A stretch of DNA of 64,000 bases from Escherichia phage teqhad, in the sequence record NC_054933.1; one strand, 5' to 3'. The notes under the pieces were generated by a model, which was not told the origin of the DNA, searched no databases, and worked only from the letters and a program-made list of their open reading frames with translations. Positions 3,612-50,306 of the stretch are shown here, one piece after another; within the stretch, counting starts at the first letter, position 1; every line of letters begins with the position of its first letter. The translations under genes and the position numbers were made by a program.

Positions 3612-4298
3612 TTAAAAATCGTGGGTAGAATCAGCTTCAAGAGCTACTACATAATTCGCATGTTCACCTTCAAATTTAGCAGCACCTTGTTTACCTTTTG
3701 CCCAGAGCAGAAGTTTATAATTTCCTGGTTGCATTTTCATATTTGCCATATTGATAATGAAATTAAATGTATTTTCACCATCATAATCACCAAGAGTCAA
3801 AGAATATTTAACACGGGTCAGAGCAGAATCTTCTACTTTATTAAAACCGTTAATTACGATTTTACCTTCTTTTACCGTGATAGCAATTGTATCAATTTGC
3901 AGACCACGAGATACACGCAACAGCTGTTGAAGGTCTTCAGCTTTAATTTCAGTAACAACAGATGCTACCGGGAATGGAATTGGTTTATTAGGAGCAACTA
4001 CTGTACTCGGATCGGCTGCTGGCCAAAAAATTGTTGAACGAGCATCAGCAATTTTAATATTTCCATCTTCTGACTGGGAAATTTCTGCATCATCATTAAC
4101 TAGAGACAGAATACCGAGAAAACCGTTCAAATCGTAAATTGCTACATCAAAATCAATAGTGTCAGAAATATTTGCTTCCGCATAAGTTGTACCATTAACT
4201 GCACGAGTCATAATAAATTGACCTGATTTAAGCATAATACCAGAGTTAATAGTAGCGAAATTTTTAAGCAGAGCAGTAGTATCTTTAGACAGTTTCAT
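3612..4298 (-). CDS. 45: DNA polymerase sliding clamp
   Basis: 228 aa, MKLSKDTTALLKNFATINSGIMLKSGQFIMTRAVNGTTYAEANISD... recognised as gp45. Confidence 0.95.
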   Translation of the reverse strand: MKLSKDTTALLKNFATINSGIMLKSGQFIMTRAVNGTTYAEANISDTIDFDVAIYDLNGFLGILSLVNDDAEISQSEDGNIKIADARSTIFWPAADPSTVVAPNKPIPFPVASVVTEIKAEDLQQLLRVSRGLQIDTIAITVKEGKIVINGFNKVEDSALTRVKYSLTLGDYDGENTFNFIINMANMKMQPGNYKLLLWAKGKQGAAKFEGEHANYVVALEADSTHDF

Positions 4299-4752: not shown

Positions 4753-4944
4753 TTAGTCATAATAATCAGTAACAGTCCAAGCTTCATTTCTATTGGACAT
4801 TATTTTTGTATATTCTGCTTTAAATGCATTCCTAAGCATAGATTCAGTAACTATATGCTCTTCATTAGAAAAATTATTTCTCAGAATATATCGTTTTATT
4901 TCAGGAAAAGTTAATAGATGCTGTCCGGTTGAATATTCTGCCAC
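4753..4944 (-). CDS. 45.2: small early protein 45.2-like
   Basis: 63 aa; synteny between rpbA and 46. Confidence 0.65.
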   Translation of the reverse strand: MAEYSTGQHLLTFPEIKRYILRNNFSNEEHIVTESMLRNAFKAEYTKIMSNRNEAWTVTDYYD

Positions 4945-4954
4945 AGTTCCTCCG

Positions 4955-4962
4955 TATAAATA
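4955..4962 (+). promoter_or_regulatory. late promoter TATAAATA (plus strand)
   Basis: Exact TATAAATA 34 bp upstream of the plus-strand HNH gene; AAGGA SD at 4986-4990. Confidence 0.55.
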
Positions 4963-4995
4963 TGTTTATCACTCGCTGTATCAAAAGGATATGTT

Positions 4996-5712
4996 ATGAA
5001 TTATAAACTAATTTATGAAAAGTTAATCTCTAATGCTAAATCTCGAAAACTTGATTGCTATACTGAATCTCATCACATTATACCACGCTGTTTAAATGGC
5101 AGCGATGATGCTTCAAACTTAGTAGAGTTAACACCAGAAGAGCACTATGTAGCTCATCAACTTTTAGTAAAAATTTATCCTTCTGAACCAAAATTAGTCT
5201 ATGCTGCTAACATGATGACAGTTTCCACGAAATACGCTAAACGCAACAATAAAACTTTCGGTTGGATTCGTCGTAAACTCTGGGAAATAGAAAAGAACAA
5301 AGAATTCTCCCAGGAGACACGAAAGAAAATGTCTGATGCAGTAGCTAATAAAGCAAGACTAACTTGTCCTCATTGCGGTAAGTCTGGATTAAGCGGGAAT
5401 ATGAATCGTTGGCATTTTGATAACTGCCCAAATCACCCTAATCCTAAAGTTAGACCACCAATGTCTAAAGAACACAGAAATAATATCTCAAACGGACTTA
5501 AAGCAATCGTTCTTGAAGAAACATCCTGCGAATTCTGCGGAATGATAGGCAAGAAATGCGTTATCGCAGCGCATAGAAATTTCTGCAAGAAAAATCCAAA
5601 TGGACGCAAGAAAACTGAAAAGACTGGTACTTGCGTCCATTGTGGTAAAGTTACCACTTTCGGAAATTTATCAAGATGGCATAATGATAACTGTAAATAT
5701 AAACCTAGCTAA
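4996..5712 (+). CDS. HNH homing endonuclease with C-terminal zinc-finger-like repeats
   Basis: 238 aa; HNH core HHIIPRCLNGSDDASNLVELTPEEHYVAH; repeated CxHCGK...RWHxDNC motifs; antisense to all flanking genes. Confidence 0.85.
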   Translation: MNYKLIYEKLISNAKSRKLDCYTESHHIIPRCLNGSDDASNLVELTPEEHYVAHQLLVKIYPSEPKLVYAANMMTVSTKYAKRNNKTFGWIRRKLWEIEKNKEFSQETRKKMSDAVANKARLTCPHCGKSGLSGNMNRWHFDNCPNHPNPKVRPPMSKEHRNNISNGLKAIVLEETSCEFCGMIGKKCVIAAHRNFCKKNPNGRKKTEKTGTCVHCGKVTTFGNLSRWHNDNCKYKPS

Positions 5713-7393
5713 TCTTAGCTAAACTAAATCTACCAACTTTTTCCATTTGAATATGCTGACCGTATTCTTGTGGGTCATGGTCTTTATGCGAAATTATGAA
5801 GAAGTTGGTATCCTTCAAACCATCTAAAATTTTAGCTACATTTTTAATACCTTCAGCATCAAATGCACCGTCATACACTTCATCAAGAAATAAACAACTT
5901 ATTTTAACACCTGAAACTTTTTCAGCAATATCACGCCAAGTAAATAAAAGAGCAATATCAATTCGTGCTTTTTCACCTTGACTGAATGAAGCATAACTAA
6001 AATCTTCACGACCACGGGATTTAATTGTCTCATTAAATTCTTCATCTAATGTAAACACATAATCCGCTTCCATTATTTTAAGATAATAATTAATCTGTTT
6101 ATTAAATAATGGAATGTACTTTTTAATAATAGCACCTTTAATACCAGAATCTTTGAGCATATCAGTCAAAATTCCTCGGTGGTATTTTTCCATTACTAAA
6201 TTAGTTTTTGTCTTAACAATTTTATCAAGTTCTTCTTGAAGCAGTGCTATTTCATCAGCATGGTCAATAAACTCAGAAGATGCTTTTTCTATAGCTGCTT
6301 TAACTTTTTTAGCTTTATCTACCGTCGTGATTAAGGATTGCTTTTTATTGCGAATATCATTTGCTAATGACTGTTGGGTTTTAATATTATCTCGGTATTC
6401 ATCAACAAGAACTTTTAAATTATCGCGATGCGTTGAAAGCTGTTCAAACGAATGCGTGCATTCAGAAACTTTATCTTTAATTTTAGAAACAACTTTATCA
6501 CCGGAACTTAATTGTGACAAACAGGTTGGACATAATCCACCTTCATGATACATATTAATGACTTTATTATACGAGTCAATTTTTGATTTAATTAAAACTG
6601 CTTCTTGACCGATTTTATTAAATGCATCAGTCGGGTCTTCGTCTAAAACAATATTAACTAATCTTTCATTAGCTTCTTCTATTTCTGATTTTAGCGTTCT
6701 AGCTTCTTTTGCCAAATCATCATACATATTTTGAAGACGAGTAAGGTTGTCACCAGACAATTTTTTCTGACGTTCAACATTATCATTATATATTTTAATT
6801 TGTTGGATAATACTATCTTTTTTAACATCAAGCACTTGGTTTTGTGAATTTAATTCACGTATTAGTGCTTTATTAAGCTTATCCATTTCAGCTAATGTTC
6901 CTACCTCAAGCAGGTCTTCCACAAGCTTTCTTCGTGCAGGGGTCGACAAACCCATGAAAGGGGTATACCCTGCTGTACCAAGGACAACAATCTGCTTGAA
7001 ACTGGCATATGACATTCCGATAAGCTGTTCAAATTCTGCTTGGAAATCTTTACTGCTGGCAGATTCATTAAGACGTGTACCGTTAACGGTGATTTCGAAA
7101 ACGTTTGGTTTTTGTCCTCTTTTGATATAGTACTTTTTCTCATCATATTCCATCCACAGTTCAACTAAAAGTTCTTTCTTATTTGTGCTGTTTATTAATT
7201 GACCTTTCTTTACATCACGAAATGGCTTGCCAAAAAGCCCAAACGTGATGGCTTCTAACATAGTAGACTTACCACCGCCATTTCGTCCAGTAATAAGAGT
7301 TTTTTGAACCTTATCTAATTGAATGTCAATAGGATTTCCACCTACTGACATTATATTTTGATACCTAACTCGGTTTAGTTTAAAATTCTTCAC
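5705..7393 (-). CDS. 46: recombination nuclease subunit (Rad50/SbcC-like ATPase)
   Basis: 562 aa; Walker A GRNGGGKST; long coiled-coil region; start codon is GTG at 7393-7391. Confidence 0.9.
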   Translation of the reverse strand: MKNFKLNRVRYQNIMSVGGNPIDIQLDKVQKTLITGRNGGGKSTMLEAITFGLFGKPFRDVKKGQLINSTNKKELLVELWMEYDEKKYYIKRGQKPNVFEITVNGTRLNESASSKDFQAEFEQLIGMSYASFKQIVVLGTAGYTPFMGLSTPARRKLVEDLLEVGTLAEMDKLNKALIRELNSQNQVLDVKKDSIIQQIKIYNDNVERQKKLSGDNLTRLQNMYDDLAKEARTLKSEIEEANERLVNIVLDEDPTDAFNKIGQEAVLIKSKIDSYNKVINMYHEGGLCPTCLSQLSSGDKVVSKIKDKVSECTHSFEQLSTHRDNLKVLVDEYRDNIKTQQSLANDIRNKKQSLITTVDKAKKVKAAIEKASSEFIDHADEIALLQEELDKIVKTKTNLVMEKYHRGILTDMLKDSGIKGAIIKKYIPLFNKQINYYLKIMEADYVFTLDEEFNETIKSRGREDFSYASFSQGEKARIDIALLFTWRDIAEKVSGVKISCLFLDEVYDGAFDAEGIKNVAKILDGLKDTNFFIISHKDHDPQEYGQHIQMEKVGRFSLAKIS

Positions 7394-7840: not shown

Positions 7841-8856
7841 TGTGTTGCCTCTACATATAACTGATTTGCATATTGAATAAGTGCTTCACGGTCAGAATCA
7901 GTGATGTCTGGAATTGCATTAATGTATTCTTCCATCAACGTCTGAAGAGATTGAACTTCAACTTCTTCACTGTCATCTGACTCGACAGAGTTATCAATCT
8001 TTGACACAACTCGTAATGAATGCACAACTTTTTCTAGTTCAGATTCGAACTTCGTCAGATTTTTGTCTACTTCAGTTACTATAACACGTACTGATAGATT
8101 TGTAAAATCTTTATAGTCAATTTTTCCTTTAAACGGATAATGAATTCTACGATGCCAGGTAGTATTGTTTGGAATAAATTCCATTCGTTCTGTTTCTGTA
8201 TCAAACATCCAGAACCCACGAGGGTCATTCTCGTCACCTGCTGTTAGTGTCCATGGTGTCCCAATATATCTGACGTTAGCAGCCTCAGAGATAGTATGGA
8301 AGTGACCAGACCACACCTCTTTATAAGTCTTAAGGAAATCAGGTTCAAGACCGTGAGATTTCATTCCTTTATAAAAATAAAATCCATTCAGTTCCCAGTG
8401 ACCAACACAAAAAGAAGCAGATGAAGTTTTGATGTGTTCAAGAATTTCACCAGTATTTTCTTCGCACATCCAAGGAATCAAATCAATCAAACACCCGTCA
8501 AAATCTACTGTAGTAGGCTTATCATACACTTTAACATTATGATATTTAGCCAAAAGCTCAGTAGAGGCATTTGGATGCATTACATTTTTGTAGTGGAGAT
8601 CGTGATTTCCTACAATAGTATGTAATGTGATTCCAGCGTCATCAAGCATTTGAACTATTTCACGGGCAAACTCCATAGTTTTATGCGTGATTGCTTTTCG
8701 CACATCAAAAATATCACCATATTGAATCCATACAGTAATTCCATTTTTCTTAGAATATTCTATCGCTTGCTTAATTCCATCAATTTGAATACCGCGAATC
8801 CACTCATCATCAGCTTTAACGCCTAAATGCCAATCACCCAAGTTTAGTATTTTCAT
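7837..8856 (-). CDS. 47: recombination nuclease subunit (Mre11/SbcD-like phosphoesterase)
   Basis: 339 aa; GDWHLG and GNHD phosphoesterase motifs; ATG at 8856-8854. Confidence 0.92.
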   Translation of the reverse strand: MKILNLGDWHLGVKADDEWIRGIQIDGIKQAIEYSKKNGITVWIQYGDIFDVRKAITHKTMEFAREIVQMLDDAGITLHTIVGNHDLHYKNVMHPNASTELLAKYHNVKVYDKPTTVDFDGCLIDLIPWMCEENTGEILEHIKTSSASFCVGHWELNGFYFYKGMKSHGLEPDFLKTYKEVWSGHFHTISEAANVRYIGTPWTLTAGDENDPRGFWMFDTETERMEFIPNNTTWHRRIHYPFKGKIDYKDFTNLSVRVIVTEVDKNLTKFESELEKVVHSLRVVSKIDNSVESDDSEEVEVQSLQTLMEEYINAIPDITDSDREALIQYANQLYVEATQ

Positions 8857-9457
8857 GGTGTCTTTTCCATCCTAATTTAGCTGCTTTTGAAACCAGTTCT
8901 TTAATTTTTCCTTTTGTCCATTCAGGACCAGGAGGTTCATGACATAACATTTGCTTAACTCCGTTATTATACCATTTTTTACCTTTATTATGTGATGAAG
9001 CTTTAAATTTATTTGACCTTCCTTTTACATAACCTTCTGGAATATAAGGCAAAAAGGCAGATTTTCCTGTTAATGGATCATGTGAATGTATATTTCCTTT
9101 ACAATTATGAGAACCATATAATGGATGATTTTGTCCTTTATTATCTCTTCCAAATGAACCTTTTGGAGCAGCATATGACATATTAAAGAATAATGGATTT
9201 TTAACTGCATCATGCAATCGTTGATAATATAACTCGCATTTAATAGCTTCTTCACGCGTATCAAATTCAGCTAAAATGCATGAATCAAATAAGTGAGGAT
9301 TATCTGAAAGCTCTTTATTATAAATTTTCTTATACTTTTTAGATAAAACTGAACCATGATATCCAGCTAAATGCCTATCTAAAGACGTAGATCCAATATA
9401 AAAAGGAGGAAGTTTATCTCCACTATATATTGTTAAATAAGTTATATATTTTTTCAT
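8834..9457 (-). CDS. GIY-YIG-type (Seg-like) homing endonuclease
   Basis: 207 aa; N-terminal YITYLTIYSGDKLPPFYIGSTS matches GIY-(10 aa)-YIG spacing; NHPLYG element; lysine-rich C-terminal tail. Confidence 0.65.
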   Translation of the reverse strand: MKKYITYLTIYSGDKLPPFYIGSTSLDRHLAGYHGSVLSKKYKKIYNKELSDNPHLFDSCILAEFDTREEAIKCELYYQRLHDAVKNPLFFNMSYAAPKGSFGRDNKGQNHPLYGSHNCKGNIHSHDPLTGKSAFLPYIPEGYVKGRSNKFKASSHNKGKKWYNNGVKQMLCHEPPGPEWTKGKIKELVSKAAKLGWKRHHENTKLG

Positions 9458-35506: not shown

Positions 35507-35684
35507 CTAAACGAATAGGTTCATGAATGCCATATCCCTGAACAGAAATTTCTGTCGTAGGATAAATTCCACTAATATCACCCATATTCCACGCTTCATT
35601 AAATTGCTGTTCGCCTGAATTACTAAACCATTCTGCGAAAGCATTTAGCACATCTTTAGAACCTTCAATAATTATCTTTGCCAT
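35463..35684 (-). CDS. hypothetical small protein
   Basis: 73-aa ORF. Confidence 0.45.
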   Translation of the reverse strand: MAKIIIEGSKDVLNAFAEWFSNSGEQQFNEAWNMGDISGIYPTTEISVQGYGIHEPIRLVEYDLCTGEEVKYD

Positions 35685-36046
35685 TACAAACTCTCGGTAA
35701 AGGTACGAGCGATAACGTCGCGCTGCTGTTCCGGAGTCAGAGAGTTAAAGCGAACTGCATAACCGGATACACGGATGGTCAGCTGCGGATATTTTTCCGG
35801 ATGCTTAACTGCATCTTCCAGAGTTTCACGACGCAGAACGTTAACGTTCAGGTGTTGACCACCTTCAATTTTAACTGTAGGCTGTGGCTCAATTTCAATT
35901 TCACGGGCATGCAAACCGTAGAAAATTTCTGGGTCTACAAAAGAGTCCTCTTTAAAGGTTTTAGAGACAATAATTCGTGCTTGAATACCATCTTCAAAAT
36001 AAATAGTACCTTTATGTGTGCCTTCAAGAATTTGATATGCTTTCAT
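35684..36046 (-). CDS. autonomous glycyl-radical cofactor (GrcA/YfiD-like)
   Basis: 120 aa; C-terminal [60 protein letters not shown] carries the RVSGYAVRF glycyl-radical motif. Confidence 0.85.
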
Positions 36047-36053
36047 ATAAACC

Positions 36054-36380
36054 TCAATTAGAAAATAAATTTATCCAAGATTGTTCTTTAATTAAAAATG
36101 GCTCAGAATCATATGCCATTAAACTTTGGGTGATTAGTCCTTTAAAAGGTCCATCAATAAATTCCATGGTAAAATATGGAATTTTATTCATTAACTGTGC
36201 GTTAGGAGCAGTGCACAAAACTCTGCATCCTTTGAATACACCTTTTTGTAATTTGTATTGCTTGGGATAAAATTCGCTTAAAATGTTGTTATTTGCCAAA
36301 ATTTCAAAATGATTTACCAATTTATTTTTAATAGTTTTTGGCGAAAAATAGAGATATTCGAAAAGCTGTGTGTCTGTCAT
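36054..36380 (-). CDS. hypothetical protein (from [12 protein letters not shown])
   Basis: About 108 aa. Confidence 0.45.
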
Positions 36381-38019: not shown

Positions 38020-38988
<969 letters not shown>

Positions 38989-50283: not shown

Positions 50284-50291
50284 TATAAATA
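50284..50291 (+). promoter_or_regulatory. late promoter TATAAATA for gene 53
   Basis: Plus-strand TATAAATA 29 bp upstream of the gene 53 ATG. Confidence 0.55.
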
Positions 50292-50298
50292 GATAATA

Positions 50299-50306
50299 TA
50301 TTTATA
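50299..50306 (-). promoter_or_regulatory. late promoter TATAAATA for gene 4 (divergent)
   Basis: Minus-strand TATAAATA 27 bp upstream of the gene 4 ATG. Confidence 0.5.

Follow-up and report, generated by a model that had tools for sequence, protein, structure and literature searches.

The question raised by this locus is whether a plus-strand gene located between genes 45.2 and 46, in a region where the surrounding genes are all encoded on the other strand, is a mobile homing endonuclease and, if so, which sequence it attacks. The DNA comes from a Tequatrovirus and is referred to here as the window, which means the whole stretch of 64,000 nucleotides that was analysed. The coordinates of the features are collected in the table below.

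Table. Features of the 45.2-46 region, with positions counted from the first nucleotide of the window
Feature	Position	Strand	Remark
Gene 45.2	4753..4944	-	start altered by the cassette: GTG plus an extra Ala codon, ATG in T4
Cassette relative to T4	4939..5724 (approximate)		786 bp for a 73-bp segment of T4 (45.2 start, spacer and gene 46 tail); alignment with T4 AF158101 and RB32
T4-type late promoter motif TATAAATA	4955..4962	+	exact match; motif starts 41 nt before the ATG
Conserved 5'-UTR element TTTATC-N4-GCTGTATCAAA	4965..4984	+	kept in the orthologues of other genera
Shine-Dalgarno AAGGA	4985..4989	+	6 nt before the ATG
Mob-like HNH homing endonuclease gene	4996..5712	+	238 aa, ATG start
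HNH catalytic core, E24-S-H26-H27...N41...H50	5065..5145	+	residues invariant in the 67-sequence alignment
Zinc finger 1, CPHC-X12-H-X3-C, C124-C144	5365..5427	+	motif; predicted strand-strand-helix unit
Zinc finger 2, CEFC-X11-H-X3-C, C178-C197	5527..5586	+	motif; predicted strand-strand-helix unit
Zinc finger 3, CVHC-X12-H-X3-C, C213-C233	5632..5694	+	motif; ligands invariant in 67 homologues
Convergent overlap of the stop-proximal ends of the endonuclease gene and gene 46	5705..5712		8 nt
Gene 46, Rad50/SbcC-like recombination nuclease subunit	5705..7393	-	562 aa
Endonuclease-linked diverged patch of gene 46, Walker B through H-loop to C-terminus	5725..5925	-	62-87% identity to non-carriers
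Candidate immunity/target codon of gene 46	5750..5752	-	Ile ATT here; Leu CTT/CTC in sampled non-carriers
H-loop of gene 46	5780..5794	-	within the patch
Walker B motif of gene 46	5876..5893	-	within the patch

The original prediction placed a plus-strand gene between 45.2 and 46, described it as the only one in about 50 kb and had its 3' end overlap convergently with that of gene 46, and all three statements agree with what is observed. Indeed, the open reading frame scan of the window gives an ATG-initiated frame of 238 codons at this place and no further convincing plus-strand frame before 50.3 kb, where the late baseplate genes begin. In REP2, the closest annotated relative (97.2% identity over 25 kb), no feature other than the homologous gene is encoded on the opposite strand across ~ 47 kb. 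The left-hand neighbours 45.2, rpbA and gene 45 all lie on the minus strand, and an overlap of 4 to 14 nt with gene 46 is found at every orthologous locus. Both adjacent genes, 45.2 and 46, are intact and uninterrupted, so the endonuclease gene is free-standing and intergenic, and no interruption of a host gene of the type seen in the group I intron setting of I-TevIII was found, the frame being located between two complete genes.

The HNH core that had been claimed for the protein is well supported. In an alignment of 67 homologues, residues E24, H26, H27, P30, G35, N41, L45, H50, H54, L57, A70 and W90 are invariant, and the alignment profile matches the HNH motif of McrA (E 6.6e-4), residues 21-50 being aligned to the HNH motifs of McrA, a group II intron maturase and Cas8-HNH. 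The conserved His (general base), the Asn and the His/Asn metal ligand of the beta-beta-alpha-metal motif that define the HNH / His-Me finger nucleases are all present. PHROG 655 'homing endonuclease' matches the protein at E 1e-68 and 2256 homologues are found at E<=1e-5 in a large protein database; the Pfam HNH match is sub-threshold, with 17.3 bits against a gathering score of 21.4 bits. Tandem zinc-finger-like repeats had also been described, and fingers are indeed present, but there are three of them instead of two and the RWH signature is absent from the middle one. The three C-terminal motifs follow the pattern CX2CX11-12HX3C, and the zinc ligands of finger 3 (C213, C216, H229 and C233) are likewise invariant in the 67 homologues. 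The AlphaFold2 model, with a mean pLDDT of 93.2, displays an N-terminal strand-strand-helix core, then helices, then three strand-strand-helix units that coincide with the three zinc-finger motifs. Whole-chain fold searches returned weak matches to zinc-finger arrays and HNH domains, as expected for a protein made of small domains in a string.

Furthermore, dN/dS among the orthologues ranges from 0.01 to 0.19, and the endonuclease is under purifying selection. The N-terminal domain is homologous to those of MobB, MobC and MobE, and the family-specific C-terminal region consists of three zinc fingers related to those of MobE/I-TevIII, both of which characterise the Mob family. Judged from its sequence, the protein is an intact and constrained Mob-type HNH enzyme with a predicted I-TevIII-type zinc-finger DNA-binding domain.

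The gene had moreover been credited with a late promoter and a good Shine-Dalgarno sequence, and both are found. The TATAAATA motif matches exactly, with 33 nt between it and the ATG. In T4, late promoters depend on gp55, gp33 and gp45 and consist of this motif at about -10, without the need for a -35 element. Over the whole window this motif displays no enrichment (12 found versus 11.2 expected); enrichment was hence rejected as evidence for a promoter, and position and conservation were relied on instead. The copy upstream of the endonuclease gene is the single one on the plus strand within the first 50 kb, and we estimate from the shuffle mean that a given 60-nt stretch would contain a copy by chance with a probability of ~ 0.005. 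RB32, RB51, MHG19 and the Mosigvirus G2469 all retain it, at -41 to -53, and the two most distant orthologues, PF-CE2 and Squirrel, carry a degenerate C/TTAAATAG in its place. Given this sole plus-strand copy, its position and its conservation in orthologues, the gene may be transcribed late from its own putative promoter. The T4 endonuclease genes are expressed from middle or late promoters and never from early ones (PMC2988022), and the inverted orientation observed here would prevent early read-through expression of the endonuclease.

Between the promoter and the Shine-Dalgarno sequence, the element TTTATC-N4-GCTGTATCAAA is conserved in cross-genus orthologues although the rest of the spacer has diverged. 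The late 5' UTR was examined for a hairpin of the I-TevI/mobE kind that would sequester the RBS, and none was found (MFE -7 kcal/mol, z -0.40), and an operator of the I-TevI style, in which the promoter/UTR would resemble the T4 target region, was rejected with a score of 9, below the shuffle mean of 11.3. No terminator-like site was found 3' of the endonuclease gene on the plus strand, and for this reason transcripts made late probably continue into gene 46 in antisense.

The distribution of the gene was determined with a 2.1-kb query spanning the locus against GenBank phage records. The endonuclease is present in 58 of the 590 records matching this query, including RB32, RB33 and RB51 (58 by DNA and 58 also by tblastn at >=95%). 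Its suspected absence from T4 is confirmed, since the 73-bp 45.2/46 junction occupies the place, and T4 and most other matching records are 714 nt shorter. The occurrence of the same gene in all close relatives including T4 would speak against a mobile element; the distribution found is instead patchy, as expected of a mobile endonuclease gene. All of the Tequatrovirus loci from two IMG/VR scans (6 and 3) are non-carriers. Outside this genus, carriers are found among the Mosigviruses (14 of ~ 155 records) and the Pseudotevenvirus/Slopekvirus-type phages (74/176 records), being a minority in each of the three T4-like groups, and the architecture is identical across the groups, with the gene inverted between a 45.2-like gene and the 3' end of gene 46. 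The protein identity of the orthologues is 63% for Yersinia phage MHG19 (Tevenvirinae), 57% for the Mosigvirus-type G2469 and F2, 44% for the Pseudotevenviruses PF-CE2 and leE and 42% for the Klebsiella phage Squirrel. The gene is thus either present or absent at one fixed site in closely related phages, a polymorphism that is typical of homing endonucleases.

The element is already catalogued and is a member of a known family, common to about a tenth of T4's close relatives. RB32ORF054w is annotated as 'putative site-specific intron-like DNA endonuclease, similar to mobB', as is its counterpart in RB51, and a mobB-like putative endonuclease has been in GenBank since the RB32 record and is annotated in dozens of records. 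Two mob-like genes have been listed in RB32 (Petrov et al. 2010), and the list of T4 endonucleases in the review of Edgell, Gibb and Belfort (PMC2988022) has no entry at the 45.2/46 site. No publication characterising the 45.2/46 endonuclease was found in the literature.

Alignment of the 45.2-46 interval with T4 and its relatives, which had been proposed as a way to define the insertion, does delimit a cassette. T4 homology ends at the second codon of 45.2 and restarts in gene 46, some five codons from its end. The extra Ala codon at the start of 45.2 is also seen in Mosigvirus carriers, and the tail of gp46 reads ...GRFSLAKIS in the window versus ...GRFTVMV in T4. The T4 spacer, with its MotA-box-like middle-promoter sequence upstream of 45.2, is missing from the cassette phage. 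The architecture of a mobile insertion that had been assigned to the locus therefore stands as far as the patchy occurrence and the fixed site are concerned, but it is not a clean insertion: it is a replacement cassette that alters the ends of both neighbours.

The two flanks of the cassette differ in their relation to the endonuclease. The rpbA/45.2 flank is not endonuclease-linked, the window being 99.0% identical to T4 and 96.8% to RB32. On the gene 46 side, the first 676 bp of the flank are 97.3-97.5% identical to carriers and 90.7-91.6% to seven non-carrier loci over the full length; an eighth non-carrier locus (L009) aligned over 364 bp only, at 85.7%. The divergence lies in the patch at the end of gene 46, which is 80% identical in T4, and identity to non-carriers is back at 97-100% beyond position 6000. 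A search with this 206-bp patch gave 58 records at >=95% identity, none at 90-95%, 59 at 80-90% and 904 at 60-80%. By record counts (58 and 58), the linkage between the endonuclease and the diverged gene 46 end is complete; it is drawn from the counts per identity band, and the sampled RB32, RB51, REP2 and SH_GT all agree with it. In Pseudotevenvirus, comparison of carriers with 98%-identical non-carriers independently displays a linked patch of ~ 180 bp in the same place, ending at the Walker B region. Carrier-linked differences in the neighbouring gene, as looked for in a homing system, are thus present in gene 46 of Tequatrovirus, Pseudotevenvirus and Mosigvirus. Gene 46 had been named as the candidate target, and the endonuclease-linked patch in its last ~ 200 bp, together with the recurrence in Pseudotevenvirus, supports this.

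Within the 78 nt of gene 46 compared, from the H-loop to the junction, position 5752 (the first base of its codon) is the only one that separates all 4 carrier lineages from 13 distinct non-carrier sequences. The codon is ATT (Ile) in 5 Tequatrovirus carriers and MHG19, and TTG (Leu) in the carriers G2469 and F2; it is CTT (Leu) in 16 T-even-type non-carrier genomes and CTC (Leu) in the non-carrier ime09. This comparison is based on 8 carrier and 17 non-carrier sequences (25), which are phylogenetically non-independent. Of the 17 non-carriers, 12 are Tequatroviruses and 3 are Mosigviruses, and the other two are a Gelderlandvirus and a Dhakavirus. At least two independent codon changes (ATT and TTG) are implied. 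When the Mosigvirus carriers G2469 and F2 are compared with the near-identical HX01 and mar005, gene 46 differs at the junction codons and at one Leu codon, located 11 codons upstream of the junction, which changes from CTT in non-carriers to TTG in carriers, a synonymous difference of two bases. The non-carrier sequence CAT CTT CAA ATG AAG AAA GTT GG is almost invariant, synonymous sites included. Among the Pseudotevenviruses and Slopekviruses, Ile is found at this codon in the non-carriers too, and it is at the next codon that the carriers differ from them, which suggests that the distant orthologues may read a shifted or different site.

A similar arrangement has been described for MobE, which nicks nrdB of mobE-less phages and for which nick-site polymorphisms split mobE+ from mobE- phages (PMC2790892). 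There, a conserved block for the binding domain adjoins the polymorphic nick region (Wilson & Edgell, PMC2790892). Since the pattern in gene 46 mirrors that of MobE/nrdB, we propose that the fingers would sit at the stop region and that the HNH domain would cut inside the gene. From the alignment, cleavage would fall near the Leu codon at 5752, and the C-to-A/T change in this codon appears to be the best single candidate for immunity.

Taken together, the locus probably encodes a late-expressed free-standing HNH homing endonuclease of the Mob family, carried on an inverted cassette of ~ 0.8 kb and attacking the gene 46 of phages devoid of the endonuclease. According to this model, the endonuclease would not be expressed early, since the early and middle transcripts are made in the opposite direction, and its late transcription would start at the TATAAATA promoter of the gene itself. 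When a carrier and a non-carrier infect the same cell, the zinc-finger array would bind the 3' end of the endonuclease-less gene 46, around the stop codon, and the HNH domain would nick or cut 30-40 bp inside the gene, near ...CAG CAT CTT CAA ATG AAG AAA GTT GG.... Recombinational repair from the carrier genome would then transfer the endonuclease along with the resistant end of gene 46, and the patch substitutions and the disrupted stop-codon region would protect the gene 46 of the carrier itself.

The main alternative, which we regard as unlikely, is that the element is a relic that is no longer mobile. The 45.2/46 junction would then be an ancient alternative allele, passed on vertically and shuffled by ordinary recombination, with an endonuclease that is inactive on the targets of today or kept for another reason. 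Several observations would fit such a history. Each allele has a unique junction sequence and cannot be derived from the other by a plain insertion or deletion, and among the non-carriers themselves the 3' end of gene 46 is a mosaic with two haplotypes. The cross-genus identity of the endonuclease is just 42-63% and does not exceed that of the flanking genes, which suggests that the lineages are old and did not spread recently. Hence, the two alleles may be old. The relic reading is however at odds with the invariance of all catalytic and zinc-ligand residues, with the low dN/dS values and with a linkage to the short diverged patch that is complete by record counts. Moreover, the same codon is altered in independent carrier lineages, as expected if the enzyme still cuts.

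It is more improbable still that the protein is a domesticated nuclease or regulator, acting through late antisense transcription across gene 46, through control of 45.2/rpbA/45 or through competitor exclusion, and for which self-propagation would be secondary. Late transcripts entering gene 46 antisense, as the apparent lack of a terminator-like site would allow, and the conserved 5'-UTR element could both be accommodated by such a role. The loss of the T4 MotA-box-like sequence could be as well, given that a comparable motif lies on the opposite strand within the open reading frame of the Tequatrovirus copies (5480-5505). This antisense MotA-box-like promoter was considered as a stand-in for the displaced one of T4 and rejected, since it is found in Tequatrovirus only and could be due to chance: the motif is missing from the orthologues of other genera, and one is expected by chance about 1 time in ten per 760 nt (own estimate; shuffle mean 19 per 128 kb, both strands). 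As for competitor exclusion, it relies on the same molecular mechanism as homing and is no alternative to it, and a gene required by the phage would not be absent from ~ 90% of close relatives. Finally, although antisense frames do arise in AT-rich phage DNA, such as the one at 3621-4037 (+) within gene 45, the reading of 4996-5712 as a chance antisense open reading frame and no gene can be dismissed with near certainty, as this segment has no gene on the opposite strand and the homologues, the invariant residues, the confident AlphaFold2 fold and the strong purifying selection refute it.

Within the homing endonuclease reading that we favour, a further and speculative possibility, which we hold to be rather doubtful, is that the last ~ 200 bp of gene 46 have co-adapted with the endonuclease, the two making up a poison-and-antidote cassette directed against the essential Rad50-like recombination nuclease of rival T-even phages. 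The candidate target is nearly invariant in endonuclease-less Tequatro-, Mosig-, Gelderland- and Dhakaviruses, so that one enzyme could attack across genera. If this were true, a single C-to-A/T change would give immunity, and the three fingers with the HNH domain would constitute a natural modular zinc-finger nickase. The conserved 5'-UTR element might then serve for autoregulation as an operator, as is known for I-TevI.

The gene is a member of the best-studied family of phage selfish elements and, as a find, adds little. What is added here are the boundaries of the cassette, the linkage to the gene 46 end in two genera, the recurrence of the site in several lineages and a one-base candidate for immunity and target. 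The locus is a clean model, given that carriers and non-carriers are 97-99% identical outside the 0.8-kb cassette and that the presumed target is an essential recombination gene, and the sequences compared leave ~ 40 bp, with a single diagnostic base, as the candidate recognition/immunity determinant. It could yield a new Mob enzyme with a defined site, alongside MobE and MobA, and would show how three zinc fingers read glucosyl-hydroxymethylcytosine DNA. For phage-therapy cocktails, local marker exclusion is predicted between co-infecting T4-like phages.

Among the known systems, MobA with the bypass element of gene 60 is reported to form a mobile cassette (Bonocora et al. 2011) in which the endonuclease gene travels with an altered piece of its target, leaving the carrier immune. 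The two cases differ in the nature of the immunity element, which is a translational bypass insert in gene 60 and, at the present locus, would be a diverged coding patch with a new C-terminal tail of gp46. MobA also nicks its target (Edgell 2010 review).

The T4 genome holds 5 places that match the endonuclease protein, and the suspected relationship to Mob-family HNH proteins is found in the N-terminal domain. This domain, the first ~ 110-120 residues, is 44% identical to that of MobB over 126 aligned positions (E 3e-29) and 37% identical to that of MobC (E 7e-22). MobB differs in its C-terminal half, which is unrelated and has no zinc fingers, and in its location, since it lies between a-gt and a-gt.2 and all three share one strand. 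The wording 'similar to mobB' used for RB32 consequently holds for the N-terminal domain alone, and the best full-length T4 match is the mobE region beside nrdA.

With I-TevIII of phage RB3 the protein shares tandem CX2CX11-13HX3C fingers, fingers 2 and 3 being 38% identical over 63 aa to the T4 I-TevIII remnant, as well as a catalytic HNH domain that is distinct from the binding domain and, as predicted here, cutting away from the insertion site. The I-TevIII fingers have been shown experimentally to bind zinc and to be needed for DNA binding (Robbins et al. 2007, PMC1865063). I-TevIII is however intron-encoded, with two fingers, and acts as a dimer that cuts 14/16 bp from the insertion site (PMC1865063), whereas the gene studied here is free-standing and encodes three fingers.

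The closest parallel over the full length is MobE of T4, which is free-standing between nrdA and nrdB. Its N-terminal HNH domain is 43% identical over 120 aa (E 1e-26), zinc finger 1 is 44% identical over 41 aa to T4 nrdB.1, the C-terminal part of MobE, and finger 3 is 58% identical to the C-terminal CxxC...RWHxDxC finger encoded by nrdB.1, which continues mobE. Both genes are free-standing and patchy in T-even phages, and both adjoin a conserved DNA-metabolism gene that differs between carriers and non-carriers. The presumed target is gene 46 here instead of nrdB, and the protein has three fingers compared to one finger match in the T4 MobE/nrdB.1 region. Moreover, mobE is promoterless and co-transcribed with nrdA (PMC2790892), whereas the gene at the 45.2/46 site lies opposite to its neighbours with its own late-promoter motif, and overlaps and rewrites the stop region of its presumed target gene.

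Genes 46 and 47 of the window have an endonuclease gene on either side, namely the HNH ORF and a second free-standing gene, and are therefore bracketed by two unrelated homing-endonuclease genes. The N-terminus of the second product is GIY-YIG (Seg-like), the Pfam match (PF01541) having an E-value of 3e-4, slightly under threshold, and at this interval T4 has the small gene 47.1 in place of the endonuclease gene. In REP2, the closest annotated relative, the homologue bears the label "HNH endonuclease", apparently an annotation error.

Features of the window within or near the two endonuclease genes
Feature	Window position	Strand	Location and description
5'-UTR element, TTTATC-N4-GCTGTATCAAA	4965-4984	+	between late-promoter motif and Shine-Dalgarno of the HNH ORF
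MotA-box-like middle-promoter motif, GATTGCTTTA-N13-TATTAT	5480-5505	-	inside the HNH ORF, directed at 45.2/rpbA/45
Free-standing endonuclease gene	8834-9457	-	between gene 47 and a-gt; 207-aa product

At the end of gene 46, two junction variants are observed among the Tequatrovirus carriers. In the window (5705-5724), RB32 and SH_GT, gp46 terminates in ...GRFSLAKIS and the overlap with the endonuclease gene is 8 nt, while in RB51 (locus L017, 1781-1790) and REP2 (locus L003, 44458-44470) the terminus is ...GRFSVATIN and the overlap is 4 nt; the endonuclease C-terminus also differs slightly between the two variants. For endonuclease-less Tequatroviruses, the 3' end of gene 46 was compared between window 5725-5925 and L004, L008, L009 and L028-L031, loci that have no HNH ORF at this junction. 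Two haplotypes are found, a T4-type and a T2/L004-type, the protein of the latter being similar to the Mosigvirus version; hence, recombination has made a mosaic of the gene 46 3' end even among phages that lack the endonuclease.

The 46/45.2 spacer of T4 contains TTATGCTTTA-N11-TATAAT, which is lost through the cassette in the window. The MotA-box-like motif within the HNH ORF is restricted to Tequatrovirus carriers and could be a chance occurrence. Upstream of the ORF, the 5'-UTR element is conserved and still discernible in other-genus orthologues despite spacer divergence elsewhere; a hairpin was sought in this element and none formed, and its comparison with the T4 target region displayed no resemblance.

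Elsewhere in the window, a plus-strand ORF of 127 aa (35678-36061) is almost coextensive with a minus-strand ORF of 120 aa (35684-36046); of the two, the REP2 annotation retains just the ORF that shares the strand of the early genes. Moreover, TATAAATA motifs occur in pairs at two sites: two minus-strand copies with a spacing of 13 nt near 38.5 kb (38528-38548), and a divergent, back-to-back pair (50284-50306; 50284, plus, and 50299, minus) where minus-strand genes give way to plus-strand baseplate genes.

Regarding the Mob-type endonucleases of T4 itself, mobE (141 aa) and nrdB.1 (83 aa) are separate annotations in the old T4 record (AF158101 139716-140416; locus L019, 4717-5417), and a newer T4 record displays a single uninterrupted 231-aa tblastn match adjoining nrdA. 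A Mob-type zinc finger is present in the T4 nrdB.1 product. These observations are consistent with one longer MobE.
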